This document shows positions 1 through 13,251 of a stretch of 13,754 bases of DNA, piece after piece (the stretch's first letter is position 1; each line of letters opens with the position of its first letter). A program made the translations under genes and the position numbers. A model generated the notes under the pieces. It had not been told where the DNA came from, did not search any database, and saw nothing but the letters and a program-made list of their open reading frames with translations. The DNA comes from a virus. Taxonomy: Duplodnaviria > Heunggongvirae > Uroviricota > Caudoviricetes. The DNA lies in IMG/VR virus record IMGVR_UViG_2534682222_000011. The stretch is one strand, 5' to 3'.

Positions 1-192
1 AGATCTACTTTAGCAAGCCAAAATGTCACGAAGTTATCTGATGACATAACTTATCCTTGATAATTATTGTATGGATAGATTATCCAGAAATTTGCGAACT
101 GAGTCGGTCATTTTTTTTTTGTGTGCGCGTGATGTAATAAAGGTTCAGGAATATACTGTCAGTTTACTGAAAAACTGGCAACAGAGGCGGTT

Positions 193-420
193 ATGAGCGA
201 GAGTTACGAGTTCTCAGCAGGTTGTTTTTTGAAGCTATCAATATCTTCAGGGTATTTCACTATCAAAATTCAGGGAGATCTCCCCGCTCGTGCAGCTAGT
301 GCCATCTTGGCAGATGATGTCGAGCAGGTTTTATCTCAACTAGACAAATGTTTTCAGCTGAGTAATAGGCAACGAGAAGGGATCGTTAAGTATCTTATGT
401 CGAAGGGGATGCAGCCTTGA
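193..420 (+). CDS. hypothetical small protein (75 aa)
   Basis: ATG-initiated ORF; its TGA stop (418-420) overlaps the ATG (420-422) of the next ORF, suggesting translational coupling. No recognisable motif. Confidence 0.4.
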   Translation: MSESYEFSAGCFLKLSISSGYFTIKIQGDLPARAASAILADDVEQVLSQLDKCFQLSNRQREGIVKYLMSKGMQP

Positions 421-878
421 TGACTTGGATCACCCAAACAGATAACTGGACAGGGATCGCGGCGTGGGCGGGTTTTGCTTTGTCCGTATTTCAATTACTA
501 AAATCCAGAACATCGCTAAGGCTTTATCTCGGATGTGATCAGCACGAGGACAGGATATACGTTTCGAACATAAGCGCACACGATGTAACGTTGAGTGCAG
601 CCGGTGTGGTAACAGCCAGTGGACGCCTTAGAATGTTATCCGACGAATATTCGGACGAGAACATGATCACACCGATGCTGCCAAAAAGATTGAAAGCACG
701 AGACGAAATGGTCTTGAACGTGCCATTCATAAATAAGGCTCATCACAACAAAGTGCATCATCGTGGCGGGGTTTATATCAAAACATCTGACGGCAAGATG
801 TTCAGTGATGTTTGTTGGATCAAACGCCAATGGTGGTGGTTACTGTCTGTAATACTACGAGACACAAAGCGATACTAA
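420..878 (+). CDS. hypothetical membrane-anchored protein (152 aa)
   Basis: N-terminal hydrophobic stretch WTGIAAWAGFALSVFQLL fits a single TM helix or signal anchor. ATG at 420 preferred over the TTG at 417 used by the ORF track. Confidence 0.45.
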   Translation: MTWITQTDNWTGIAAWAGFALSVFQLLKSRTSLRLYLGCDQHEDRIYVSNISAHDVTLSAAGVVTASGRLRMLSDEYSDENMITPMLPKRLKARDEMVLNVPFINKAHHNKVHHRGGVYIKTSDGKMFSDVCWIKRQWWWLLSVILRDTKRY

Positions 879-968
879 GTTGATTGATAGTCCGAGGTGA
901 TGTTCTGCCCAGCGTAGTTGCTGGGTGATACACCTTCAATGATTCTTGTTAGTGTGTAGGGGGGGGGC

Positions 969-1187
969 ATGTTGGATTTTAAAGCTGAGTTTGTTGGCGG
1001 CAGCCATAGCGGCGAGGTTATATCACCGATGTCCGAGGTAGAACTTAATAAACTAGGGTATAGAGTCCATTTACGTGGTGCCCCCTCTGGCGATGAAATG
1101 CCTGTACACGTTGTTGTACCTATTGAATGGTCAGCGGATGAAGCACACAGAGCCATAATGCAGCGCTGGGGTAAACGCAGACGGTAG
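969..1187 (+). CDS. hypothetical protein (72 aa)
   Basis: ORF with balanced charged composition, directly preceded by a G9 homopolymer (959-967). The competing antisense ORF 875-1198 is S/T/P-rich low-complexity and judged less likely. Confidence 0.3.
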   Translation: MLDFKAEFVGGSHSGEVISPMSEVELNKLGYRVHLRGAPSGDEMPVHVVVPIEWSADEAHRAIMQRWGKRRR

Positions 1188-1904
1188 ATGTCGCGCATTT
1201 CTCTTAAACTGGCTGCTGTGTTTGGTGCTAATTATCCATGCAAAGTGGCCTAAGCTACGTGGAAGAATGATCAGTTTCGCATTATTTGGTTCAAGGAGGG
1301 CTCCCCCACAGCCTCACTCTCTGAATGCAAAACAGCCCCACAATCCCACTGTTAAAAGTCCCAGCTTGAAAATTGCACGCTTATGGTTGCCCCTCCCTCA
1401 ACTCTATAGCTCGCCCGCGCCCCCGTGTGCATGTGCGTGCCCGCGCGTCAGGGGTCGCTGAGAAACCCTAAGATTTTGCTCATCCGAGACAAGCATTACA
1501 GGAGCGTGCTACTGAGCGAGATGCTGGCTGATTGCTGTTGCTGAATAACCGTGTGGGACGAGTGCTGCGATCATCTGCCTTTCACTGTGTATCTGTACAT
1601 CCCTCTAAAACGATCTGTATCGCTCTGTGCTGCGTTCTGTGCTTCCAATGTGTGATTCAATGCCTTTGTGATTTCGAGATCGTGGCGGTGCCGTGCTGAT
1701 CTGCTGCGTGCGCTCTACGCTGTGTTCGCTGGATGTGCCGGGGAATGCTGCTGTGGGGCGGTGCCAGTCTCTTTCGGGTATACCTGATAAAGACATAGAC
1801 ACACTGTCTCATTTGACTATCTATAAAACTCTATTGACTACACATTATTGATGTGATCTCTTATAGGTCTTGCTGTGATATTTCATTGAGACTTAGGGGG
1901 AAGC

Positions 1905-2537
1905 ATGGCACACAATGCGCTTATCTATTGCCGCGCCAGTACATCAGAGCAACACGCAGACCGGGCGCTGGGCTTGCTGCGAGAGTTCGCCAGTGATCGG
2001 GGCTGGCCTGTACGGGCGGAGTACATCGAGAACGCCAGCGGTGCGAGGCTGGCGCGTCCTGAACTAATGCGCTTGCTGGATGATGCGCAGGCCGGAGAGG
2101 TCTTGCTTGTCGAGAGCATCGACAGGCTAAGCCGCCTTACGCAAAAGGAATGGGCGACACTGAAACAGAGGATTCAGGATAAGGGACTGGTGATCGTTGC
2201 CGTTGACCTGCCAACCTCATGGCAACTACTGAACGATACGGCGTCAGAGCTTACAGAGGGCATCCTGAGAGCTGTTAACGCAATGCTGATTGATATCCTC
2301 GCTACGATGGCACGAGTGGACTACGAGACACGCAGAGCACGCCAAGCGCAGGGCATCAAGCGTGCCAAAGCCGAGGGGAAATATAACGGGAAGTCTAAGG
2401 ATGAGAGCGCCCGTGAAACTGTCCGCGCTATGCTTACCGTTGGGAATAAACCAGAGCACATCATGAAAGCTGCCGGGATAAGCCGGGCAACGTTCTACCG
2501 TATCAAACGTGAGCTGTCCGCCAGCGTTACAGAGTGA
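1905..2537 (+). CDS. serine recombinase, resolvase/invertase family (210 aa)
   Basis: N-terminal catalytic motif LIYCRASTSEQ (Y-x-R-x-S-T-x-x-Q, presumed nucleophile Ser), SG...R...GEVLLVESIDRLSR core, and C-terminal helix-turn-helix (ISRATFYRIKRE), as in small serine recombinases. Purine-rich SD-like GGGGGAAG precedes the ATG. Confidence 0.9.
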   Translation: MAHNALIYCRASTSEQHADRALGLLREFASDRGWPVRAEYIENASGARLARPELMRLLDDAQAGEVLLVESIDRLSRLTQKEWATLKQRIQDKGLVIVAVDLPTSWQLLNDTASELTEGILRAVNAMLIDILATMARVDYETRRARQAQGIKRAKAEGKYNGKSKDESARETVRAMLTVGNKPEHIMKAAGISRATFYRIKRELSASVTE

Positions 2538-2953
2538 TGACCTACAGTCTGATGAGATGCCAGCACTGGCCGTTACTGGGCTGTGGGTGATGGATGGCCT
2601 ACAGCTTTTGTATTGATATCAGATATTTATGTTATGCCTAATCTCGTAATGGTATGATTTATAATGTATTTCCGTATTACTTGCGGCTCTTGATATGAAG
2701 AGATGGCGGGGCTTTAGCCGTGCCAGACGATGAGTATCAAGATCAGATTGTGAATGTGATTTATCACTGAACAATTCGAGGGATGGGGCAGGGGAAGGGA
2801 TCAAAGGCTGTGTTGTCCAATCACTCAGCTAGATTTGAAGCAGGGCAACACCTTCGTTTTACCTTTAAAGTTGCATTTAAAATACATGTACAGAAAAGGG
2901 TTCTTCCCTTTCATCCCTTCTCCTAATCAGTGTTATCGCTTTTCGCTCTACAC

Positions 2954-3023
2954 TGGCTGCGCTTCTCGCTATGCTCCAGCCCGCTCCATCGCCTTTGGCT
3001 CATTCCCGGCCTTCGCCCGCTGT
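2954..3023 (+). repeat. scrambled tRNA-Gly 3'-half-like fragments (possible decayed att scar / left junction)
   Basis: Contains GCTCTACA, CCCGCTCCA, ATTCCC and a 12-nt exact match CCTTCGCCCGCT to the tRNA-derived att at 13224-13251, same orientation but out of order. Confidence 0.3.
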
Positions 3024-3080
3024 GATGCTCGGCCCTCCACGCAACCGTGCTTGCCAGGCAGTCAACGCGGCGGGGATAGA

Positions 3081-3113
3081 GTAGTGGTACGGTACTATAT
3101 TGGGATATGGTAC
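3081..3113 (+). repeat. GGTAC direct repeats (candidate integrase arm-type sites)
   Basis: GGTAC at 3086-3090, 3091-3095 and 3109-3113. The reverse-complement motif ([C/G]TACC) is clustered at 13152-13182 next to the integrase start. Confidence 0.25.
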
Positions 3114-3288
3114 TCACAATGCCGCTTATAACCCCTTACATCCCAGCATCCCAACAAACCTACTGAAAGTTATCAGCAAATCATTCATCAAGTCAGACAG
3201 GGCAAGGCTTACAAAGGTGTTGATTAAAAAATAATCAAATTAGAGTTTCTACTGTGGCAAAACGAACACCACTCGCTTGTGCATACGT

Positions 3289-3354
3289 AGTGACCTACAT
3301 GAAAGTCACTACTAAAGAGGGACAGAACATTCAACGTCACTGCTGACATGAAAT
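3289..3354 (+). promoter_or_regulatory. operator-like repeats upstream of helicase gene
   Basis: Dyad AGTGAC-N10-GTCACT (3289-3310) and direct repeat ACATGAAA (3297-3304 and 3347-3354), in the non-coding leader 75-140 bp upstream of the 3428 start. Confidence 0.3.
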
Positions 3355-3427
3355 TCTCTCTACGGGCAGCTCGGCGCTGCCGTCCTGCGCCTCGTTCTAA
3401 ACTCACCTTAATTTTGGAGATTTCACC

Positions 3428-5272
3428 ATGCCAACGAACCTACGCCGTTTGCTTGCGCAGGCTGCCGACGCTGACCCGCTCAATACCGCAAACGCAGATG
3501 TACAGCAAATGGTCGCTGACGGGATTGTTATTCGGCGTTCCAAGATATGCCCGATAAAGCATAAACCCGTTAAGGCGGCATACAACACGAAGACCGAAGA
3601 GTTTTATTACAATGCTGATGGCTCCGCTATGACCCTGCGGGAATGGCGAGCGCTGCATGGTGTTCAACCGAAGAAGCAAAAACAGCGCTCTGACACGGGG
3701 TTGCGGCAAGTCATCCAGCCCGGTGACGCAATTCATTGCCGACGCGCTGAGATAGAAATGTGGCTCAACAAGAAGCCTGCTCGGTATGCTGACCCGCTGC
3801 CGCCTGATTTTCCCGGTGTTCGCGTAGATGATGCCGCATTGAAACCGCGCGAGCACGCCGTTTCGGCATCGACAACCGGGCAGAATGCTTTTCTCAAAGC
3901 CTGCCGCGAGTTCCTGATTTGTGATGAGAAGACTATACACCGCATCAACAGGGGCATGAATAAACTGGAAGCGATGCGCAATTCAGATTTCAAACGCTAC
4001 GGGGACTCAGCGGAGTTTCGTCAATTGTGGTGTGGAGAGTCGAAACCTACCGAGGATAAATTTAACAGTACAAATCATCATTGTGACCCAAACGGCTTGG
4101 CAGTGTCGCCGTCTGTGCCGTCACTGAATACAGCCTCTTATGAGTTTCGCCCGCTGGTTCGCTGTGACCGAAACGCACGCGTTAGCCTGTTGCCACCCGA
4201 TGGGCTGGAGTGGAGGCCGGGGCAGTTGTCTGTTGCTGATGCGATCTTCTCCCGTGGTAGTGATGTGCTGGCCGTTCTGCCTACGGGTTATGGCAAGACC
4301 GCCGCCTTCGCTTATCCATTGATTTATGAGTCCCGCGCTGGCGTTGGCCTGTCTGTAATCGTGGTTCCCACTAATACCCTAAAGCGCCAGATTCTCCGCC
4401 AGTTGCGGGATGCTGGCGTTCACGCTGTGGCATTCGGTGACAAGTTGCCGAGGCACCGCAACGCTCAACAACTCGCGGGGCTGGCTGCCGGGGCGTTCCG
4501 TGTTGCTGTCGTTTCACCTGAGCATCTTGTTCTGTCGAGTCAGGTCTTCGCGGCGCTGATGGCTTACGGCGTTGATCGTTTTATCATCGACGAAGCGCAC
4601 ACGGTTAAAGACTGGGATTTCCGACCCGCTTACGAGGCCATGCAGCACTCGCTACAACATGCCTTTCTTTCGGCTCAACGCTGCGTATTTACGGCTACGC
4701 TGCTACGCGAAAATGAGCGCAGTTTAATGGCGTCGCTTGGCTGCCGTGGTGATTACGTAACATTCCGTGCTGATGTTGCTCGCGAAAATATCCAGTTGAC
4801 GACAGTCAGACAGTGCCGCGAACGTTTCCGAGCGGCTATTGGTCTGGTCGAGGCTCTGCCGAAAGAAGAGAAGACGCTCATTCTCGTCAATGACCTTAAG
4901 ACGTTGCGGGCGTACCTGAAACTCTTAGGCGACCGGGCGCGCCCATATCACTCGAAGACGATGCACTTGAGTAACGAAGAACGCCACGCAAACGCTGAGT
5001 GGTTTGCCACTACGCCGGGCGCAATTCTGATTGCTACTAAAGCCTTCGGGCTGGGGGCTGATGTGCCAGACATTCGCAACGTCATCGTTACATATATTCC
5101 TGATGACCTGCCTGACCTCATTCAGATGATTGGACGAGCCGGGCGCGATGGTCAACCTGCCCGCGCGTTTCTGCTGTGGTCATCGCTGGCGCTGGATGCT
5201 GCGCCTGATGAGCTTGCTTACTTCTACCGCCCTGAAAACTGCAACTGGCAGTACATCGCTAAATACCTCTGA
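3428..5272 (+). CDS. SF2 DEAH-box helicase, RecQ-like core, with ~270-aa N-terminal extension (614 aa)
   Basis: Helicase motifs in order: LPTGYGKT (I/Walker A), VVPTNTL (Ia), IIDEAH (II), FTATL (III), LIATKAFGLGADV (V), QMIGRAGRDGQ (VI, RecQ-type). N-terminal part has an excisionase/AlpA-like winged-helix signature (TLREWRALHGV ... GDAIHCRRAEIEMWL). GGAG RBS 10 nt upstream of the ATG. Confidence 0.9.
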   Translation: MPTNLRRLLAQAADADPLNTANADVQQMVADGIVIRRSKICPIKHKPVKAAYNTKTEEFYYNADGSAMTLREWRALHGVQPKKQKQRSDTGLRQVIQPGDAIHCRRAEIEMWLNKKPARYADPLPPDFPGVRVDDAALKPREHAVSASTTGQNAFLKACREFLICDEKTIHRINRGMNKLEAMRNSDFKRYGDSAEFRQLWCGESKPTEDKFNSTNHHCDPNGLAVSPSVPSLNTASYEFRPLVRCDRNARVSLLPPDGLEWRPGQLSVADAIFSRGSDVLAVLPTGYGKTAAFAYPLIYESRAGVGLSVIVVPTNTLKRQILRQLRDAGVHAVAFGDKLPRHRNAQQLAGLAAGAFRVAVVSPEHLVLSSQVFAALMAYGVDRFIIDEAHTVKDWDFRPAYEAMQHSLQHAFLSAQRCVFTATLLRENERSLMASLGCRGDYVTFRADVARENIQLTTVRQCRERFRAAIGLVEALPKEEKTLILVNDLKTLRAYLKLLGDRARPYHSKTMHLSNEERHANAEWFATTPGAILIATKAFGLGADVPDIRNVIVTYIPDDLPDLIQMIGRAGRDGQPARAFLLWSSLALDAAPDELAYFYRPENCNWQYIAKYL

Positions 5273-5310: not shown

Positions 5311-5748
5311 ATGCCTGTTACCGAACATGCGCAGCGTCGTGCTACGCGTGCGGATGCGCTCGTCACCGCACAACTTGCCTTCGCCCTGAACGGATATTCC
5401 TTCGATGGGTTAGCTGAGCGCCACCGCCAGACTCTTAATCGTGCGGCCATCTTGCGCCAAGCTGGTACGCCGCTACAGCGGTATTGCCTGCTCAATCACT
5501 GTGAGCCTTGGGAATGTCTGGCCGCTGTGCTGAATAGATTCCGACGCCGGGAGGATGGCGCTCGTCTTTGGCCGACCTATCGCATGGCTCGTGAGGTCTT
5601 TAATGGGACTGTTCACCCTGCCAACAAGACGCGCGACGAGATATTTCAATCTGTGCAGCGTCGCCTCTTTTTACCAAAACCAGTACACGCCGAAGTAATC
5701 CAGTACCTGCGCGTAATGGGGCTGACAGGAGTTAATCCGCATGACTAA
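5311..5748 (+). CDS. hypothetical protein (145 aa)
   Basis: ORF with GGAG RBS about 10 nt upstream; first in a chain of overlapping, translationally coupled ORFs. Confidence 0.6.
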   Translation: MPVTEHAQRRATRADALVTAQLAFALNGYSFDGLAERHRQTLNRAAILRQAGTPLQRYCLLNHCEPWECLAAVLNRFRRREDGARLWPTYRMAREVFNGTVHPANKTRDEIFQSVQRRLFLPKPVHAEVIQYLRVMGLTGVNPHD

Positions 5749-5947
5749 AACCGAGTTTGAAAATGAAACGTGGCGAATGAAAGGCTTGCTTCTTGGGGCG
5801 CTAATCCGCCGCCTTGAGGAAGACAAGGCTGGTGAGTCGCGCATGGCCGCAGCGGAGTTATCCAGTGCGGTCAACTTCCTTAAGGCCAATGCCGTAGAAG
5901 CGCCGGACACGTCATTTAACCGTGTATTTGAGGATGACGAGCAATGA
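5741..5947 (+). CDS. hypothetical protein (68 aa)
   Basis: Start overlaps the end of the upstream ORF by 8 nt; GGAG RBS with the same spacing as the upstream gene; acidic C-terminus. Confidence 0.5.
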   Translation: MTKTEFENETWRMKGLLLGALIRRLEEDKAGESRMAAAELSSAVNFLKANAVEAPDTSFNRVFEDDEQ

Positions 5948-6120
5948 CACCCGCAGAGTTTAGAGCATGGTTTGCAACCCTGCCGCCGAACTATCAGAGC
6001 GCAGCACGAGCCATGTATGAAAGCGCCCGCAAGACGGGAACACACACCGCTTCCAGCCTGCTACTCATTCGCACGCTGATTGAAGATCAAATCAATTTCG
6101 ATGGAGACTTTACCTTATGA
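5944..6120 (+). CDS. hypothetical protein (58 aa), not in supplied ORF track
   Basis: Hand-translated: ATG at 5944 overlaps the upstream TGA (ATGA); uninterrupted to TGA at 6118-6120, which overlaps the next ATG at 6117 (ATGA). Fits the coupled-operon pattern. Confidence 0.4.
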   Translation: MTPAEFRAWFATLPPNYQSAARAMYESARKTGTHTASSLLLIRTLIEDQINFDGDFTL

Positions 6121-6680
6121 CAGTTCTGAGCCTGACCGATATCCAGCGCATCAATACCCTCGTTAAGCGCGACCTTCGCAATGTGGAAGAGGTAGTCGCT
6201 GCAACCGGATTTGACCCGGAGGACGTTGACGCGGTGCTGCGCGGCGTTTATGTAGCCGACCTTGCCAACCAGTGGAGGGATGAAGCCGCTATTACGCTGG
6301 AGGAATACAACGCCATCCGTAAGCGCTGGAAACCGGGGCGCGGCCACTGGGACACTGCACATGCCATTGCACGCGATTTTCTAATTCGGCCTGAAACTGT
6401 GCTGGCTATCGTCCATTCCCGCTTTAGCAACGCCCACACCCACCCGATGCCGAAAGCAGTTAAAGCAAAGCCTGAGAAACCGCAGACGATGCGCCGCCTG
6501 TTGAGCGCCGACCTCGATCAGATGCACAAGCTGGAGCGCTTCGGCTGGAAACAAACCGAGATCGCTGGGGAGCTTGGGATCTCTGCTGAGGCTGTTGCTC
6601 ATGTCCTGCGCCTGATGCGTAGCAAGTGGTCTTATCCAGATATTTTGGAAGACGTTAACACGCGATTCGGGGCTAAGTGA
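6117..6680 (+). CDS. hypothetical DNA-binding protein with C-terminal HTH (187 aa)
   Basis: C-terminal segment WKQTEIAGELGISAEAVAHVLRLM resembles a helix-turn-helix; start overlaps upstream stop. Confidence 0.65.
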   Translation: MTVLSLTDIQRINTLVKRDLRNVEEVVAATGFDPEDVDAVLRGVYVADLANQWRDEAAITLEEYNAIRKRWKPGRGHWDTAHAIARDFLIRPETVLAIVHSRFSNAHTHPMPKAVKAKPEKPQTMRRLLSADLDQMHKLERFGWKQTEIAGELGISAEAVAHVLRLMRSKWSYPDILEDVNTRFGAK

Positions 6681-7169: not shown

Positions 7170-7856
7170 ATGGCTGACCAGAATGTTAATCCGTACCTTT
7201 CGGGCGCTGATACTGCGCCGCAGCAATCGCCGTACATGGCCGCACCTGTAGGCGCTGACAACGGCGCTAGCAGATTCGACCAGACAACACCTGATGCTGA
7301 TTTCCTGAAAACGCAGCCAGCGAACATTAATCAAAGCTGGAACGAAAGTAACTTTGCCAACCAGCAAGACCAGCAGATTGATGTTGCTGCGCAAGTGGGC
7401 GACACGCTGCAATTACAGGATGGCACTACTGTTGAGTTGACTCCTGAACTTCATGGGCTGATGGGGCAGTTTCACCAGTCTGTCGAAAGCCAGCTAGGGC
7501 AGGGGACAGTTGACGCGATGTTGCAGTACGCTGGCACGCTCGACGCCGGGACGCAATCAACCCTTGAACGGATGGTTATGTCTGGCGACCCTGCGCAGAT
7601 GCAGCGGGCGGTTCATTATCTGCAAGAGCGTATGGTCGCAGGCACTGCGACTGGTTATGTCCCATCACAGGGGAACCCATACGGCCAGCCTGCCTCGCAA
7701 CCTGTTGGTATGTCTCATGCTGAGTTTATTGCAGCGTATGATCAGCTTTCGCAGTGGGCGCAGCAATCAGGGTATGGCCCCGGCCATCGCCAGTACGACG
7801 ATCAATACCGCGCTCTGGTTGCGCAGCGCTCCGCTGGCAAACGCGCTGGCCGTTAA
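7170..7856 (+). CDS. hypothetical Gln/Ala-rich acidic protein (228 aa)
   Basis: AAGAGG RBS 10 nt upstream of ATG. Q-rich, acidic, low-complexity composition of the kind seen in scaffold or decoration-type proteins, but no diagnostic motif. Confidence 0.65.
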   Translation: MADQNVNPYLSGADTAPQQSPYMAAPVGADNGASRFDQTTPDADFLKTQPANINQSWNESNFANQQDQQIDVAAQVGDTLQLQDGTTVELTPELHGLMGQFHQSVESQLGQGTVDAMLQYAGTLDAGTQSTLERMVMSGDPAQMQRAVHYLQERMVAGTATGYVPSQGNPYGQPASQPVGMSHAEFIAAYDQLSQWAQQSGYGPGHRQYDDQYRALVAQRSAGKRAGR

Positions 7857-8015: not shown

Positions 8016-8363
8016 ATGACCTTACTGACACCTGAAAACGTGGCAGCGGCTAGGGCTGCCCGTAGCGCGAGGATTGAACACTGGAAAGCCAACGCCAGCC
8101 AGCTTAAGCAGGACTTTGCTGACGAAGCGCACTGGCGGCGGCTCGCCTCACGCTTCGGCGTGCGTATGCCCTCGGCGTATGTTCCCGGCTCCGAGCTGCG
8201 ATTGCTGCGCCGGGCGGCCAAACGCGCGGGCATCTCTGGTGCTGATATGCGCGATGCTTTTGGTGGGGGCGTTGCGCACCTGCACGAGCTTAATCCCCAT
8301 TGGCCTGCCTTCGCGCTTATCGGCCTGATTCTTGAGATCGCGGCTGAAAAAGCTGCTGCCTGA
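8016..8363 (+). CDS. hypothetical protein (115 aa)
   Basis: ORF after an intergenic gap; Ala/Arg-rich; weak RBS. No recognisable motif. Confidence 0.55.
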   Translation: MTLLTPENVAAARAARSARIEHWKANASQLKQDFADEAHWRRLASRFGVRMPSAYVPGSELRLLRRAAKRAGISGADMRDAFGGGVAHLHELNPHWPAFALIGLILEIAAEKAAA

Positions 8364-8431: not shown

Positions 8432-9427
8432 ATGACTGACAATGTTTATACCCCTGACCAATTCCGCCCGCACTGGGGCGGTGTAGATGCTGACAACGAC
8501 ATTCACATTGAAGCGTATGACCGGGACGTTCAGACCCGCCTTGAGGCAAAGAGCGTGTTTCTCGCCGAGGGGCTGAGCACATACAAGCCGCTGAAAAACA
8601 GTAATCAGTATCGTGTAGACCGCCTGAGCGGAGATCTGGAGGTGAAGGGCAGAACCGCAGGGCAATCGCTGGAGCCTACCGCCGTTAAGTCGGACAAGCT
8701 GATTATCTCTGTGGATACGCTGAGCTATATCCGCATCCCGATTGACTATCAAGACGACTGGACAGCGCCCACCTTTCGCGCAGAGCTGAGCCGCAACATG
8801 GGGACAGCCCATGCAAAGTTCTACGACGAAGCGCACACTATCCAGCTAATCAAAGCGACTGACTTTGTACCGCCGCCTACGTTGCAACCAACGTTTAACC
8901 CGCTGACGGATAATGTTGTCTCGCTCGACCTGACAACGGGGAGCGAAGAGGATGCGGCTAACGAACTGGTTCACGCTATTAAAGCTGCTGTTAATCGATT
9001 CCTAACTGAAAAAGATATTCCGGTGGCGGAGCTGTGCCTTCTCATCGACCCAGCTTGGTTCAGCATCCTGATGGAACATAAGAAGTTGATGAACGTCCGT
9101 TACAGCCGGGATAGTGGCAATGATTACGCATGGCGTCGCGTTGGCTATGTCGCTGGGGTGCGAGTTATTGAGCTGAACAGTTACCCGCAGGAAGCCATTA
9201 CCGCGCATGAACTGGGCGCTGATTATGATGTGACCGCAGGGGAAGCGCTGACACGGGCGACGCTGTTCCGGCCTGCGTCTGTACTTGTGACAGTCGAAGC
9301 GCAGAGCGTTATCAATCGCCAGTGGGATGATGAACGCGAAATGACAATGGTGATGGACTCATATCGCCTGTTCAATGTTGGGCTGCGCCGCCCTGACTGC
9401 GTTATAAATTTCCGACAAGCTGCATAA
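8432..9427 (+). CDS. hypothetical protein (331 aa), possibly structural/morphogenetic
   Basis: GGGAG RBS 8 nt upstream of ATG. Largest protein of the late-region-like block; no catalytic motif seen; role inferred from context only. Confidence 0.7.
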   Translation: MTDNVYTPDQFRPHWGGVDADNDIHIEAYDRDVQTRLEAKSVFLAEGLSTYKPLKNSNQYRVDRLSGDLEVKGRTAGQSLEPTAVKSDKLIISVDTLSYIRIPIDYQDDWTAPTFRAELSRNMGTAHAKFYDEAHTIQLIKATDFVPPPTLQPTFNPLTDNVVSLDLTTGSEEDAANELVHAIKAAVNRFLTEKDIPVAELCLLIDPAWFSILMEHKKLMNVRYSRDSGNDYAWRRVGYVAGVRVIELNSYPQEAITAHELGADYDVTAGEALTRATLFRPASVLVTVEAQSVINRQWDDEREMTMVMDSYRLFNVGLRRPDCVINFRQAA

Positions 9428-9443: not shown

Positions 9444-9971
9444 ATGAATATTGATGCTTATGCCCCGGAGCTGTTGCGCTCTTTGTTTCGGTACGATGCG
9501 AAGACTGGCCGCCTGTTCCATGCAGTAGACCGGATCGGAGCCAACAAGCGGATTTACGCTAAAGCCGGGGAACTGGCCGACACGGTAACGGACAGCGCCG
9601 GATATAGGCGCGTATCTGTCCGCATCAATGGCAAATCTCATGCGCTATACGCCCACCGTGTCGCCTTCATCATTGCTAATGACGGTATCCCTGCCGGGAT
9701 GCAAATCGACCATATCAACGCGGTACGCGATGACAACCGCCTTATCAATCTCCGCACGGTTACGCCACAAGAGAACCAGCACAATTACCGCAAAGCCAAG
9801 GGTTATAGCCACCATGCCTGCTCTGGCAGATGGGAGGCTTACATTCGCGTTGGTGGTGTTCGCCATCACCTCGGCTTATTCACTACCGAAGCGGCGGCGC
9901 GTGCTGCGTACCTGAAAGCTAAAGCCAGATACCATCCGTCAACGCCAGCCGATTTATTGCAGGCTGCCTAA
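9444..9971 (+). CDS. HNH endonuclease with C-terminal AP2-type DNA-binding domain (175 aa)
   Basis: HNH_3-like motif (YRRVSVRINGKSHALYAHRVAFIIANDGIPAGMQIDHINAVRDDNRLINLRTVTPQENQHN) followed by AP2-like GRWEAYIRVGGVRHHLGLFTTEAAARAAY. AAGGGG RBS upstream. Confidence 0.85.
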   Translation: MNIDAYAPELLRSLFRYDAKTGRLFHAVDRIGANKRIYAKAGELADTVTDSAGYRRVSVRINGKSHALYAHRVAFIIANDGIPAGMQIDHINAVRDDNRLINLRTVTPQENQHNYRKAKGYSHHACSGRWEAYIRVGGVRHHLGLFTTEAAARAAYLKAKARYHPSTPADLLQAA

Positions 9972-10415: not shown

Positions 10416-10698
10416 ATTAAGGTGGCGGTACATCGAGCCGCCACCAATGACTGGCGCACTCGCTGACCTGAAACAGTGGGTAATGGATACCGGAGAGCCT
10501 GAGCTTGAAGCTAAATTTCGTAAGCTGCTGGGGCTGATGCGCCGCAATGGTATCAGTGACGAACGTGTTAATGCGATGGCCGCCGAGCTTTATGCTCTGG
10601 TATGCCAACGCCAGCGCGAAGAATACGAAGCCTGCAAACGGGCTGCATCTGACAGTGGAGGCTTTGAATCATGGTTACACGGACAGACCAACTACTAA
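10399..10698 (+). CDS. hypothetical protein (99 aa)
   Basis: ATG at 10399 preceded by GAGAGGA RBS and overlapping the upstream stop region; preferred over the in-frame ATG at 10351, which lies 65 nt inside the upstream gene. Confidence 0.55.
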   Translation: MITTIKLRWRYIEPPPMTGALADLKQWVMDTGEPELEAKFRKLLGLMRRNGISDERVNAMAAELYALVCQRQREEYEACKRAASDSGGFESWLHGQTNY

Positions 10699-11108
10699 GA
10701 AAAGCGATGCGAGGCTATCTGGAATATCTCGGCAACATGCCGCTAGCGGAACGCATTAAAAATTCTGCTGCGTTCGATGATGTGTATCACTTCCTGTTGA
10801 ATGGTTCAGGACGGCTGGAGTTGCGCCGCGCTGATGTGGCCGCTGTCCGTGTCTTCCTGTGGAATTATCAATACCGACGCTGCGCGGTGACAGCTAAGCC
10901 GCTACGCCTCGCGTCTGCTGTATTGGATCACTGTCACCGAACTGGACGTGTGCGCGCTGTGGTTCATCGTTCGGCCAATGCAGCGGAAGGTGGTTATTAT
11001 GTGGGAAATTTGTGCGGACTCTCACGAAGTAGCATGTTAAGCATGCTACCTGCCTACCGCCGACAATACAAGGGGTTGGGCGTTATTTATCCAAGACAAC
11101 ATGCGTGA
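10671..11108 (+). CDS. hypothetical protein (145 aa)
   Basis: GGAGG RBS 9 nt upstream of ATG; overlaps upstream ORF by 28 nt. Confidence 0.55.
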   Translation: MVTRTDQLLRKAMRGYLEYLGNMPLAERIKNSAAFDDVYHFLLNGSGRLELRRADVAAVRVFLWNYQYRRCAVTAKPLRLASAVLDHCHRTGRVRAVVHRSANAAEGGYYVGNLCGLSRSSMLSMLPAYRRQYKGLGVIYPRQHA

Positions 11109-11186
11109 TGAGATTATTTCTTTTATTTTCATTCGGTTATGTGTTGTTGTGGCTGCCTTGTTACTTGCCTATATTTAAAACAATTC

Positions 11187-11225
11187 TTGACGGATTGACG
11201 TAGATTGCGTAGGCTGAGCATAAAA
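11187..11225 (+). promoter_or_regulatory. putative sigma70-type promoter for the two-gene cassette
   Basis: Tandem TTGACG hexamers (11187-11192 and 11195-11200) with candidate -10 elements TAGGCT (17-bp spacer from the first) or CATAAA (18-bp spacer from the second), in an AT-rich intergenic region. Which pair is used is unresolved. Confidence 0.35.
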
Positions 11226-11309
11226 CAGTTTCCTAATATGTCTCCAAACTGAGCTTCAACTTGAGAATACTTCGTTCCTACATCTCCCTTGAAGGGGTAG
11301 GAGGATAAT

Positions 11310-11519
11310 ATGAACTTTGATATGCGTACAAACCAAAATTGTGCATCGTTTTTTAACCCAGCAACCAAGGCGTTTGTCGTCGTTGATTCGTTTGACAACT
11401 ACGAATTCGATGTGCGTGCTGGTACTTTATCACGCACTGAATTTGTAGGCACCATCACAGCTTCAAACGATGAAGAGTTGAACAAGAAATTAGCTGAGAT
11501 CACGGCTGCACACATATGA
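11310..11519 (+). CDS. hypothetical small protein (69 aa), cassette gene A
   Basis: Very strong RBS (AGGAGG, 5-nt spacer); AT-rich codon usage unlike the upstream block; stop overlaps next start (ATGA). Confidence 0.6.
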   Translation: MNFDMRTNQNCASFFNPATKAFVVVDSFDNYEFDVRAGTLSRTEFVGTITASNDEELNKKLAEITAAHI

Positions 11520-11890
11520 TAACTCAACAGCAGATTGATGATTTAGTTGCAGATATTAACGATATCTTGGAAGAAGATAGAGCCAAGCTAAAGATGTCAT
11601 TTCATTTTGCTGTTGATAGACTTAATGATCCGCGTAATAAACCTCCAATCACGTTAGCTGAGTTGAGAGTGATTTTTACAAATTTCATTGGACAACACTT
11701 GCAGACAATTCTAGGCAAAGATGAGGGATTTTCCTTCACTATCAAGTGTCAGAAATCTGGTATTGCTATACCGTGCGCTATAGAGCATGAACTTGATATC
11801 GGTGCAAAGTGGGTAGTTCAGCAAGTGATCACCATCATGCGGAATCCGCAGTTTAACGCGTATCATGGTGATGTCATCTTTGATGTTTAA
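11516..11890 (+). CDS. hypothetical protein (124 aa), cassette gene B
   Basis: Translationally coupled to gene A; followed by a canonical intrinsic terminator. Confidence 0.65.
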   Translation: MITQQQIDDLVADINDILEEDRAKLKMSFHFAVDRLNDPRNKPPITLAELRVIFTNFIGQHLQTILGKDEGFSFTIKCQKSGIAIPCAIEHELDIGAKWVVQQVITIMRNPQFNAYHGDVIFDV

Positions 11891-11893
11891 AAG

Positions 11894-11916
11894 AAAGGCG
11901 CTATAGCGCCTTTTTT
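11894..11916. terminator. rho-independent terminator, plausibly bidirectional
   Basis: Hairpin AAAGGCGC-TATA-GCGCCTTT followed by a T6 run on the plus strand; the complement reads hairpin plus TTTCTTTT. Abuts the integrase stop codon. Confidence 0.7.
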
Positions 11917-13135
11917 ATAAACACGGATAACTGACCAACTCCACATACTCCCATAGTTCTTTCATCCCTGCTCCCTTGCTATATGTCCTGAAAGCTTCCG
12001 TTTTAGCTTTTTGTTCGGTATGCCCGGTTATTGCCCCTATGCGCTGTTCTGGTACTCCTGCTCTGTCTAAGCAAGTAATAAAGTGACCACGCAGGGAGTG
12101 GAAGCATTGGCGATCTGTAGCCGCTGACAGCACGCGACGGCGTAGCCGTGTAAATGCCTGCGAGTACCACGGGCCACGCTTACCGTCGGCACGTTTAATC
12201 TTGTTCGATTGGGGGAGCAGGTATTCACCGTTGTTCTGCGCAAGGTATTTATCAACGATGCTGATTAACAGCGAGTGTATGGGGACGTGCCTTACACCCG
12301 CTTTAGTTTTAGATTTGCTGACGTAGAAGCAGCGTACCCCTTCAACTTTGATAATCTCAACTCGTTTGATGCTGGCGATTTCGTCGAGACGCATACCGGA
12401 ATACAAACCGATTATGATTACGTCTCGTATCTCGCTACCTGCCTCTTTTATTAATGCCTGTAGCTGGTGTAGTTCAAAAGGTTGATAACTTTCGTTCGTC
12501 TGGCGGGCTTCCAGATTGTGGCCGTGAAAGGGATTATCAGGGGCGATATTGTCATATTTACGCCGGGCGAAGTCATACAGCGTCCCTAAGCAGGTTAACC
12601 AGTTTTGCAGCGTCTGGCGGGAAAACTTATCTTGGTTCGCTTCCAGAAAGTCAGAGACGAGCCGCCGCCCGATTCCATTTATTGTAATGGTTGGGCGTTT
12701 TATTGAATTAGTAAATGCCGATACAGCGCGAACTGATTTACTCAGCGTGGAATAAGAGCGCCGATCTTTGTATTGCTCTGCATATTCTTTACTGACATCT
12801 GTCAATTTTGGTGATGCTGGTTTTCCCCGCTCTGCTGGAATAGTTGCGGGTGTGGTAATGCTGCTGGATACCCCCGCCAGCAAGTGAAGATCTGTTACAG
12901 CGGAATGAATCCGGGTAATGGGGTTATCCGGTTTCATCATGAGCTGTAGCTTACGGAACTCTAATAAATATTGGTCACGGAAAATGCGAGCTTGCATGAT
13001 GTCCCGTGTGCCTGTCGATTTCTTGAGCGAGCGCCGCCCGTTCCAGAGGTGGCGCATGTAGACCGGAATATAGATTTGAAAGATGAATATCCCATCTTTG
13101 TTTGCATAAAGATAAGAAGTCTTCTTGATTGGCAT
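11915..13135 (-). CDS. int: tyrosine site-specific integrase (406 aa)
   Basis: C-terminal catalytic region with HSLRGHF (box II-like) and a downstream Tyr (RTYSKG). ATG at 13135 with AAGG RBS preferred over the TTG at 13165 used by the ORF track. Adjacent to the tRNA-derived att. Confidence 0.9.
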   Translation of the reverse strand: MPIKKTSYLYANKDGIFIFQIYIPVYMRHLWNGRRSLKKSTGTRDIMQARIFRDQYLLEFRKLQLMMKPDNPITRIHSAVTDLHLLAGVSSSITTPATIPAERGKPASPKLTDVSKEYAEQYKDRRSYSTLSKSVRAVSAFTNSIKRPTITINGIGRRLVSDFLEANQDKFSRQTLQNWLTCLGTLYDFARRKYDNIAPDNPFHGHNLEARQTNESYQPFELHQLQALIKEAGSEIRDVIIIGLYSGMRLDEIASIKRVEIIKVEGVRCFYVSKSKTKAGVRHVPIHSLLISIVDKYLAQNNGEYLLPQSNKIKRADGKRGPWYSQAFTRLRRRVLSAATDRQCFHSLRGHFITCLDRAGVPEQRIGAITGHTEQKAKTEAFRTYSKGAGMKELWEYVELVSYPCL

Positions 13136-13151
13136 GGTAATTACCTTGTAA

Positions 13152-13182
13152 TCTACCGCTACCAACTACCGGGATAAGTACC
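13152..13182 (-). repeat. clustered (C/G)TACC(G/A) repeats between int start and att (candidate arm-type sites)
   Basis: CTACCG, CTACCA, CTACCG and GTACCG within 31 bp; mirror the GGTAC repeats at 3086-3113. Confidence 0.3.
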
Positions 13183-13223: not shown

Positions 13224-13251
13224 GAGGGTTCGATTCCCTTCGCCCGCTCCA
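13224..13251 (+). repeat. att site: 3' terminal 28 nt of a tRNA-Gly gene (T-arm, acceptor 3' strand, CCA)
   Basis: GAGGGTTCGATTCCCTTCGCCCGCTCCA has a T-stem/loop (GAGGG-TTCGATT-CCCTT), 7-nt acceptor strand CGCCCGC, discriminator T and CCA. It matches the 3' end of E. coli glyU as I recall it. No 5' half is present upstream. Confidence 0.7.

Follow-up and report, generated by a model that had tools for sequence, protein, structure and literature searches.

The DNA considered here, a stretch of 13,754 nucleotides from IMG/VR virus record IMGVR_UViG_2534682222_000011 (hereafter the window), contains most of an integrative island of about 14 kb. Our subject is the leader of the island's helicase gene, which carries an array of short, degenerate sequence motifs. 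The same island sits beside a tRNA-Gly gene in E. coli NZ_LR536431 (L001), where it is identical except for a 549-base deletion and an IS1 at the integrase end. Members of the family are present in 56 of 5,426 complete E. coli genomes, at tRNA-Gly or tRNA-Leu sites, and related islands also occur in Kluyvera, Kosakonia and Enterobacter. Gene order is constant across 12 loci (Table 1), with a compact run of co-oriented genes that opens with the helicase gene at 3428 and closes with the endonuclease VII gene, at 11108. A tRNA scan of the window found no tRNA genes. Judged from the NZ_LR536431 island, attL (the tRNA-Gly gene) is outside the window, some 1.2 kb beyond its left edge, which places the cargo genes and the serine recombinase gene inside the element and means that the leader is not near an end. 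An initial annotation of this DNA had put the leader just inside the left end of the element; with attR at the far right of the window and attL outside it to the left, that placement has to be given up.

Table 1. Features of the island and of its helicase leader, by position in the window.
Feature	Position	Strand	Remarks
Serine recombinase gene	1905-2537		preceded by variable cargo
Long noncoding region	2538-3427		between the serine recombinase and helicase genes
Conserved noncoding block	2565-3096	+	about 530 bases; separate feature between the recombinase gene and the array
Motif copy c0	3093-3109	+	TACTATATTGGGATATG; truncated, core and downstream half kept
Second dyad	3220-3238		TTGATTA AAAAA TAATCAA; A-rich centre, directly upstream of c1
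Motif copy c1	3238-3261	+	AATTAGAGTTTCTACTGTGGCAAA; conserved GG at 3256-3257
Motif copy c2	3298-3321	+	CATGAAAGTCACTACTAAAGAGGG; strongest copy, contains the first ACATGAAA and the right arm of the dyad at 3287-3312
Motif copy c3	3347-3370	+	CATGAAATTCTCTCTACGGGCAGC; degenerate, nearest the gene, contains the second ACATGAAA; GGG at 3364-3366
G+C-rich, hairpin-capable segment	3364-3391	+	GGCAGC (3365-3370) / GCTGCC (3376-3381)
Ribosome-binding site	3416-3419	+	GGAG
Helicase start codon	3428-3430	+
RecQ-family DEAD/DEAH helicase gene	3428-5272	+	Pfam DEAD and Helicase_C; first gene of the co-oriented run
TerS-like protein gene	5741-5947		68 residues; among small genes
Scaffold-like protein gene	7170-7856
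Major capsid protein gene	8432-9427		phrog_267, E 3e-67; no Pfam match
HNH endonuclease gene	9444-9971
Endonuclease VII gene	10671-11108		followed by variable cargo
Tyrosine integrase gene	11915-13165	-	adjoins attR
attR	13224-13251	+	right island end; 28-base copy of a tRNA-Gly 3' end, exact match to the L001 tRNA-Gly gene

An expectation-maximisation motif search of the 500 bases upstream of the helicase start in the 12 loci found a degenerate motif of 20–24 bases with the consensus AATGAAAGTGACTACTAAGGAG. The 12 leaders hold 46 copies, all on the helicase-gene strand. Each of the 11 related islands has three to five copies at matching offsets, about -94/-97, -142, -200 and -285 to -330 from the helicase start, and the sequence between copies is mosaic. 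BLAST against the relatives divided the region into a conserved part (2534-3096, 84–89%) and a mosaic, length-variable part (3097-3411), and a multiple alignment revealed conserved patches inside the latter. Within the motif, information content is highest at A5, CTA (positions 12-14) and GG (19-20), with no codon periodicity. The copies at 3238 and 3298 in the window score 21–26 bits, and shuffled windows yielded 0.06 matches of at least 14 bits each. When whole loci were scanned (14–25 kb, both strands), a score of at least 14 bits occurred outside the leader only once, on the minus strand of L003 (15.0 bits), and there were a few matches of 10–14 bits elsewhere in the islands. From island to island, copies at one and the same offset differ in core class, and within every island several classes are mixed, among them GCTAC, GTGAC and GTATC.

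In the database, the island capsid protein is closest to the capsid proteins of Bonnellvirus phages of Escherichia, Kosakonia, Pantoea and Cronobacter, at 56–58% identity, followed by that of Pantoea phage LIMEzero at 51%. Similarity searches with leader DNA against phages returned nothing meaningful; the motif is too short for BLAST. We scanned six phage genomes with a matrix trained only on island leaders, using a threshold of at least 11 bits. Phages Kc261, ROV85, J8-65 and smaasur each had five sites and no others, Lidtsur had four, with a fifth carrying a one-base indel, and LIMEzero had three; scores reached 28.9 bits. The five sites are syntenic in all six phages. One lies near the left end on the opposite strand. 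The intergenic gaps ahead of the primase-helicase module and directly past the RNA polymerase gene contain one each, another is at the start of the second gene past the polymerase gene, and the last is within the gene for an internal virion protein. The phages that carry the motif have no homologue of the island helicase. Their cores are GTAAC or GTATC (J8-65 and smaasur), GCTAC (Kc261), GTGAC (ROV85) and GCAAGC (LIMEzero).

The comparison also held in the reverse direction. A phage-only matrix was built from 14 sites of three phages, with Kc261, ROV85 and smaasur left out of the building; at 14 bits or more it found five sites in each of these three, against 0.3–0.45 in shuffles. Applied to the islands, the same matrix gave 5.3 against 0.15 matches per kb, a 35-fold enrichment in the leaders, and every island score of at least 14 bits fell within the leader region. 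One copy in L006 is identical over 22 bases to Lidtsur 20015-20036. Other island copies agree with phage sites at 16–18 of 20 bases (null 99th percentile, 11), and c2 of the window matches a site of Pantoea phage ROV85 at 17 of 20, where random 20-mers of the window reach 11 of 20 at the 99th percentile. An exact-repeat search of the Lidtsur genome did not see the phage sites; only the position matrix found them.

Several further sites came to light in these scans. Four islands (L004 at 12513, and L005, L007 and L009 at the same place) have an extra minus-strand copy at about -385 relative to the helicase start. It lies upstream of the array and is directed into the conserved noncoding block; the window has none. 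This copy recalls the phages' antisense site close to their left end. Of the five phage sites, two overlap coding sequence (L013 20014 and 33127; L014 19869 and 32979; L015 20740 and 33866): one falls on the start codon of the gene that follows the small post-polymerase gene (GNAT/Rac-like in Lidtsur), and the other lies in frame inside the internal-virion-protein gene. A scan of IMG/VR with ATGAAAGTNNCTNNTAAGG returned 93 stretches, mostly ordinary gene starts. On one 43-kb contig (L034, IMGVR_UViG_3300025000_000194), TATGAAAGTCACTATTAAGGAACT occurs twice in identical form, at 8230-8253 and 9155-9178 on the minus strand, 925 bases apart, with a core of the GTCAC class, as in c2. Of the Lidtsur genes tested (polymerase, DNA polymerase and head), none had a homologue in the fetched stretch of this contig.

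The layout of the phage sites resembles that of mapped promoters in related phages. In LUZ19, ONT-cappable-seq located four phage-specific promoters, namely two directly past the polymerase gene, an antisense one and one within the structural region (PMC10914365). For KP34, in vitro transcription together with 5'-RACE placed strong promoters at 475, 22197 (right after the polymerase gene) and 33721 (PMC6834552). The five-site layout of the Bonnellvirus phages matches the LUZ19 promoters and, at the post-polymerase site, partly those of KP34. In the GenBank record of LIMEzero, two sites annotated 'putative phage specific promoter' (TTTAAAGGCAATCACTAAGG and TATAAAGGCAAGCACTATGA) are members of the island motif. 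Like the island motif, the phiKMV-like promoters (KP34, T(A/G)ATGTTACAGGAGTA; LUZ19, GgtTATGTCACacACAnnGG) are asymmetric motifs of about 16–20 bases that occur only a few times in a phage genome. GG closes the LUZ19 motif and most island copies, and the KP34 promoter was assayed with a GGG appended. By this analogy, the five phage sites are probably promoters.

The build of the motif points the same way. It is asymmetric and of the T7/SP6 type in architecture: the 5' part is A/T-rich, and a core follows it, then six A/T-rich bases and GG. Some copies read AGGTGAC, then six A/T-rich bases, then GG. AGGTGAC is part of the SP6 promoter. We also compared six phage polymerases along the segment that aligns with the T7 specificity loop. 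Kc261 and ROV85, whose cores differ (GCTAC and GTGAC), agree at about 70% in this segment against 89.9% overall, and J8-65 and smaasur have an identical loop segment and an identical motif. Among these six polymerases, loop segment and motif core seem to vary in parallel.

We consider it likely that the leader is a co-oriented array of promoter-like sites for the single-subunit RNA polymerase of podophages of the phiKMV-like genus Bonnellvirus and its relatives, through which a satellite-like island would be induced. The island would then probably switch on only upon infection by such a phage. The sequences themselves show the motif, its near-confinement to the leader and its agreement with syntenic phage sites; from them we infer promoter function for the phage sites, use of the island copies and the satellite nature of the island. 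Several points weigh against this interpretation. The promoter assignment depends on position, architecture and analogy; the promoter sequences of LUZ19 and KP34 could not be aligned in detail with the motif; and the loop comparison spans six polymerases only. The GTCAC core of c2 was found in no sampled phage, and the copies in the window are weaker than some in relatives, c0 being truncated, c1 having ATT for ATG and c3 being degenerate. Some copies, moreover, start with ATG in the frame of the helicase, so that a contribution to coding is conceivable.

The phage sites bear on a different account, in which the motif marks site-specific single-strand nicks, as in phiKMV-like phages and tf, made by a nicking enzyme of phage or island. 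The nick consensus of phiKMV is CGACxxxxxCCTA/CTCCGG and that of tf is TACT/RTGMC (PMC3517423). The CTA-CT...GG core of the motif resembles the former, c1 through its CTACTGTGG resembles the latter, and the island encodes an HNH endonuclease. But the phiKMV consensus itself is absent, only CTACT..GG being held in common, and the Bonnellvirus sites include one antisense copy per phage and follow the promoter layout. The published nick sites are confined to one strand, and those of LUZ19, at 3.1, 6.8, 14.4 and 24.8 kb, are distinct from its promoter motif (PMC3604761, PMC10914365). We therefore hold nick sites to be quite improbable and keep to the promoter reading.

The copies in the window (c0-c3) are all oriented toward the helicase gene at 3428. 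The strongest, c2, scores 26.3 bits under the island-trained matrix and 18.1 under the phage-only one; c1 scores 21.3 and 11.0 bits, and its CTACTGTGG is common to the copies at this position in L002, L006, L008, L010 and L011. Copy c3, which reaches 10.6 bits with a 30-base matrix, aligns with the gene-nearest CATGAAAACCTCTATAAGGGCAGA of L004, L005 and L009 and with the one-base variant CACGAAAA... of L007. Copy c0 has no upstream AATGAAGGC half, which relatives have, and aligns with the full copies AATGAAGGCTACTATATTGGGATATG (L010) and AATGAAAGCTACTATATCGGGATA (L002 and L008). The window also lacks the roughly 150–700 bases that relatives have between the conserved block and c0; apparently, the 5' half of c0 was lost in a deletion that joined c0 to the block. 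Downstream, the hairpin-capable segment sits at the predicted 5' end of a transcript from c3, which would begin GGGCAGCUCGGCGCUGCC. The sequence from 3364 to 3430 folds at -16.9 kcal/mol, and L004 has a compensated GGCAGA/TCTGCC pair at the same place; RNAalifold found no structure in the 5' untranslated region that is conserved across all variants.

Some features of the copies could be taken to mean that the ATGAAA... units are short upstream reading frames or encode an N-terminal extension of the helicase (MKVTTKEGQ...). ATG occupies motif positions 2-4 in 21 of the 46 copies, the copies at -141 and -93/-96 are in frame with the helicase start, and in L002, L003, L008, L011 and L012 the frame is open into the helicase from 93–141 bases upstream (for example, MMVTTKKDRLPHSRRFHPTPHSKLTLISGDFTMPT...). 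Two of the phage sites likewise overlap coding sequence in frame. Yet 25 copies have no ATG and 21 have no start codon of any kind, and stops or frameshifts intervene before the helicase start in 7 of the 12 islands, including the window. No ribosome-binding site precedes the ATGs of the motif, whereas the GGAG and the start codon at 3428 never vary, TGGAG and ATGCCAA being the same in every aligned island. Together with the lack of codon periodicity in the motif's information content, this makes translated units extremely unlikely.

The leader had first been singled out for two other repeats, a dyad and an 8-bp direct repeat, which the initial annotation took as signs of an operator or origin. 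The dyad exists at 3287-3312, but its arms are 8 bp long and not 6 (GTAGTGAC at 3287-3294, 10 bases, GTCACTAC at 3305-3312). The direct repeat, ACATGAAA, is likewise real and occurs in the whole window only at 3297-3304 and 3346-3353, with a start-to-start distance of 49 bases, not 50. When 3120-3427 was shuffled 1000 times with its dinucleotides preserved, 63% of the shuffles contained a perfect dyad with arms of 6 bp or more and 6.3% one with arms of 8 bp or more; in 28% there was, within 100 bases, a direct repeat of 8 bp or longer. Given these frequencies, the dyad and direct repeat as described are not above chance. Nor is the dyad conserved, being absent from 10 of the 11 relatives; L006, the sole relative with a similar left arm, has DNA complementarity at only 6 of 8 positions. 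What is kept in position across the 12 islands is the longer motif. Both repeats are nevertheless pieces of it: c2 and c3 each begin, at the 5' end, with a copy of ACATGAAA, and the right arm of the dyad is the core of c2.

An operator at this dyad, or at the second one (3220-3238), would allow an island helix-turn-helix (HTH) repressor to silence the helicase operon. In its favour, the first dyad has perfect 8-bp arms, the second has perfect 7-bp arms with a compensating variant in L010 (CATGGTTA AAAAA TAACCATG, 8-bp arms with a matching change), and the protein encoded at 6117-6680 has weak HTH matches. Beyond the shuffle frequency and poor conservation of the first dyad, however, the second is perfect only in the window and L010: in the other ten islands the A-rich sequence is kept but the arms are at most 5 bp. 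On average, this dyad does no better than random segments. No divergently transcribed regulator gene adjoins the leader, and nothing ties the small HTH proteins, suggested earlier as binders, to the dyad. We judge an operator very unlikely. The earlier suggestion that the leader is a likely control region for induction, with relevant repeats, survives in the promoter interpretation; the operator mechanism attached to it is unsupported.

The motif copies could also be iterons of a replication origin, recognised by the helicase's N-terminal domain or some other protein of the island, or, in a variant of this idea, could form a T7-style promoter-primed origin. PICI and SaPI origins are iterons beside a rep gene, and T7 origins are phage promoters plus an A/T-rich region. 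The copies are indeed direct, co-oriented repeats immediately before a helicase gene, and several relatives (L003-L007, L009, L011 and L012) have a tract of about 100 A/T-rich bases ahead of the first copy. This tract is missing from the window, however, as it is from L002, L008 and L010. The copies are unlike classical iterons because they diverge within an island, with differing core classes, and are irregularly spaced, at 45–60 and 130–190 bases. Tandem Repeats Finder detected nothing in a long leader from a relative, and the motif recurs at five dispersed, syntenic sites in phages without the island helicase. We regard an origin of this kind as unlikely, although a transcription-primed origin would be possible, since T7-type origins are phage promoters.

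Under the promoter interpretation, the long rightward gene run, with its helicase, TerS-like protein, scaffold-like protein, major capsid protein, HNH endonuclease and endonuclease VII, would be largely silent in an uninfected cell, because the leader has no convincing host sigma-70 promoter (a scan gave 2 weak sites against 1.5 expected). An infecting phage would produce its own RNA polymerase in the middle phase of infection. This polymerase would start near the conserved GG of c1-c3, at about 3256, 3317-3321 and 3364-3366, and would then read through the whole run. The core classes match different phage species, and one island may respond to several helpers; the presence of copies of several core classes in each island fits selection for such a multi-helper response.

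We put forward as possible rather than probable a broader proposal: that the islands form an undescribed family of satellites of virulent phiKMV-like podophages in Enterobacteriaceae, with a lytic programme wired to the helper's T7-type polymerase through a multi-specificity promoter array. The array would act as a broad-range infection sensor, and maybe also as a polymerase sink that interferes with the phage and as a transcription-primed replication origin. The literature searched gave no description of this island family or of satellites with helper-polymerase promoters.

Several known systems offer partial parallels. In the phiKMV-like phages, promoters of this kind stand in phage genomes, whereas here the sites are on a bacterial chromosomal island without a polymerase gene, in groups of three to five tandem sites within about 400 bases and of several specificity classes, and initiation from them is putative in any genome. 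The primary origin of T7 (phi1.1A, phi1.1B and an A/T-rich segment) has tandem phage-polymerase promoters before replication genes, an arrangement that the array recalls, and the relatives with an A/T-rich tract resemble it; the copy of the island in the window, without such a tract, differs. Helper-read promoters on a parasite's genes, with infection as the induction signal, are also found in P4, which depends on P2 (Ogr/Delta late promoters), and in the virophages Sputnik and mavirus. P4, however, relies on a helper transcription factor that acts on the host polymerase, and the virophages are eukaryotic and carry the late promoter motif of their giant-virus helper. The proposed reader of the island promoters is the helper's own T7-type polymerase, and the helper a virulent podophage. 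SaPI and PICI origins are similar in having direct repeats beside the helicase gene of an integrative phage-related island. Their iterons, though, are near-identical and short, flank an A/T-rich region and are bound by their own initiator, in contrast to the island copies, which are divergent and also present in helper-type phages.

The gene content of the island includes traits of satellites, namely a tyrosine integrase, a tRNA-linked att site, and major head, scaffold-like and TerS-like proteins. None of the hallmarks AlpA and Pri-Rep (PICI), Psu, Sid, Delta and alpha primase (P4), or a head module with portal and protease (cfPICI) appeared in the Pfam, PHROG or NCBIfam results. In their place are the RecQ-like helicase, the serine recombinase, the HNH endonuclease and endonuclease VII. 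Without hallmark genes, the island fits none of the P4-like, PICI, cfPICI or PLE classes. The TerS-like protein is 45% identical over 40 residues to the small terminase subunit of J8-65 (E 0.001), a similarity that hints at a redirection of packaging.

The helicase matches the NCBIfam RecQ subfamily model, but under its cut-off. PADLOC model PDLC02858 (DpdF) matches residues 111-614 with 888 bits. We rejected DpdF as an identification: the NCBIfam DpdF model gives a score of 128, far short of its cut-off of 550, and neither the scanned island proteins nor the annotations of the relatives included another dpd gene. Automatic calls of defence systems may mislabel this helicase.

The conserved noncoding block upstream of the array is 84–98% identical across four genera, with substitutions of 74/73/73 and no codon periodicity, and in several relatives its identity is above that of the neighbouring helicase protein (76–81%). 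Its plus-strand consensus fold has an energy of -98 kcal/mol with 7 compensatory pairs, and the z-score is -3.7 on the plus strand and -2.3 on the minus strand. Rfam gave no match, either for the whole window at the gathering threshold or for 2450-3500 at E-values up to 1. Candidate identities for the block are a structured RNA, a packaging element and an origin element. In L001, the clean 549-base deletion (12001-12005, corresponding to window 2492-3040, with a junction overlap of about 5 bases) joins the recombinase frame to downstream sequence and removes most of the block.

The cargo at both island ends is strain-variable (the flanks of L002-L006; window 1-1900 and 11110-11900). In L002-L006 it includes TIR-domain proteins, restriction-modification genes, DUF3800, a YafO toxin and a cytosine methyltransferase, and the family looks like a carrier of defence genes. 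The serine recombinase is swapped in relatives for alleles of just 25–35% identity.

Known satellites sense their helpers in several ways: SaPI and PICI by protein-mediated derepression, P4 through helper transcription factors and PLE by helper-triggered excision. If our interpretation is true, promoters readable only by the helper polymerase would be a simple, leak-proof induction switch, and the islands would be a bacterial counterpart of the virophages with giant-virus late promoters. The comparison yields predicted promoters for Bonnellvirus, whose relatives' promoters have so far been hard to find, and the islands offer a natural catalogue of promoter variants for poorly characterised phage polymerases. 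E. coli, Enterobacter, Kluyvera and Kosakonia would then harbour unrecognised satellites of strictly virulent phages of the T7 supergroup, which, given their TIR-domain, restriction-modification and toxin cargo, would be relevant to phage therapy and to the biology of defence islands.

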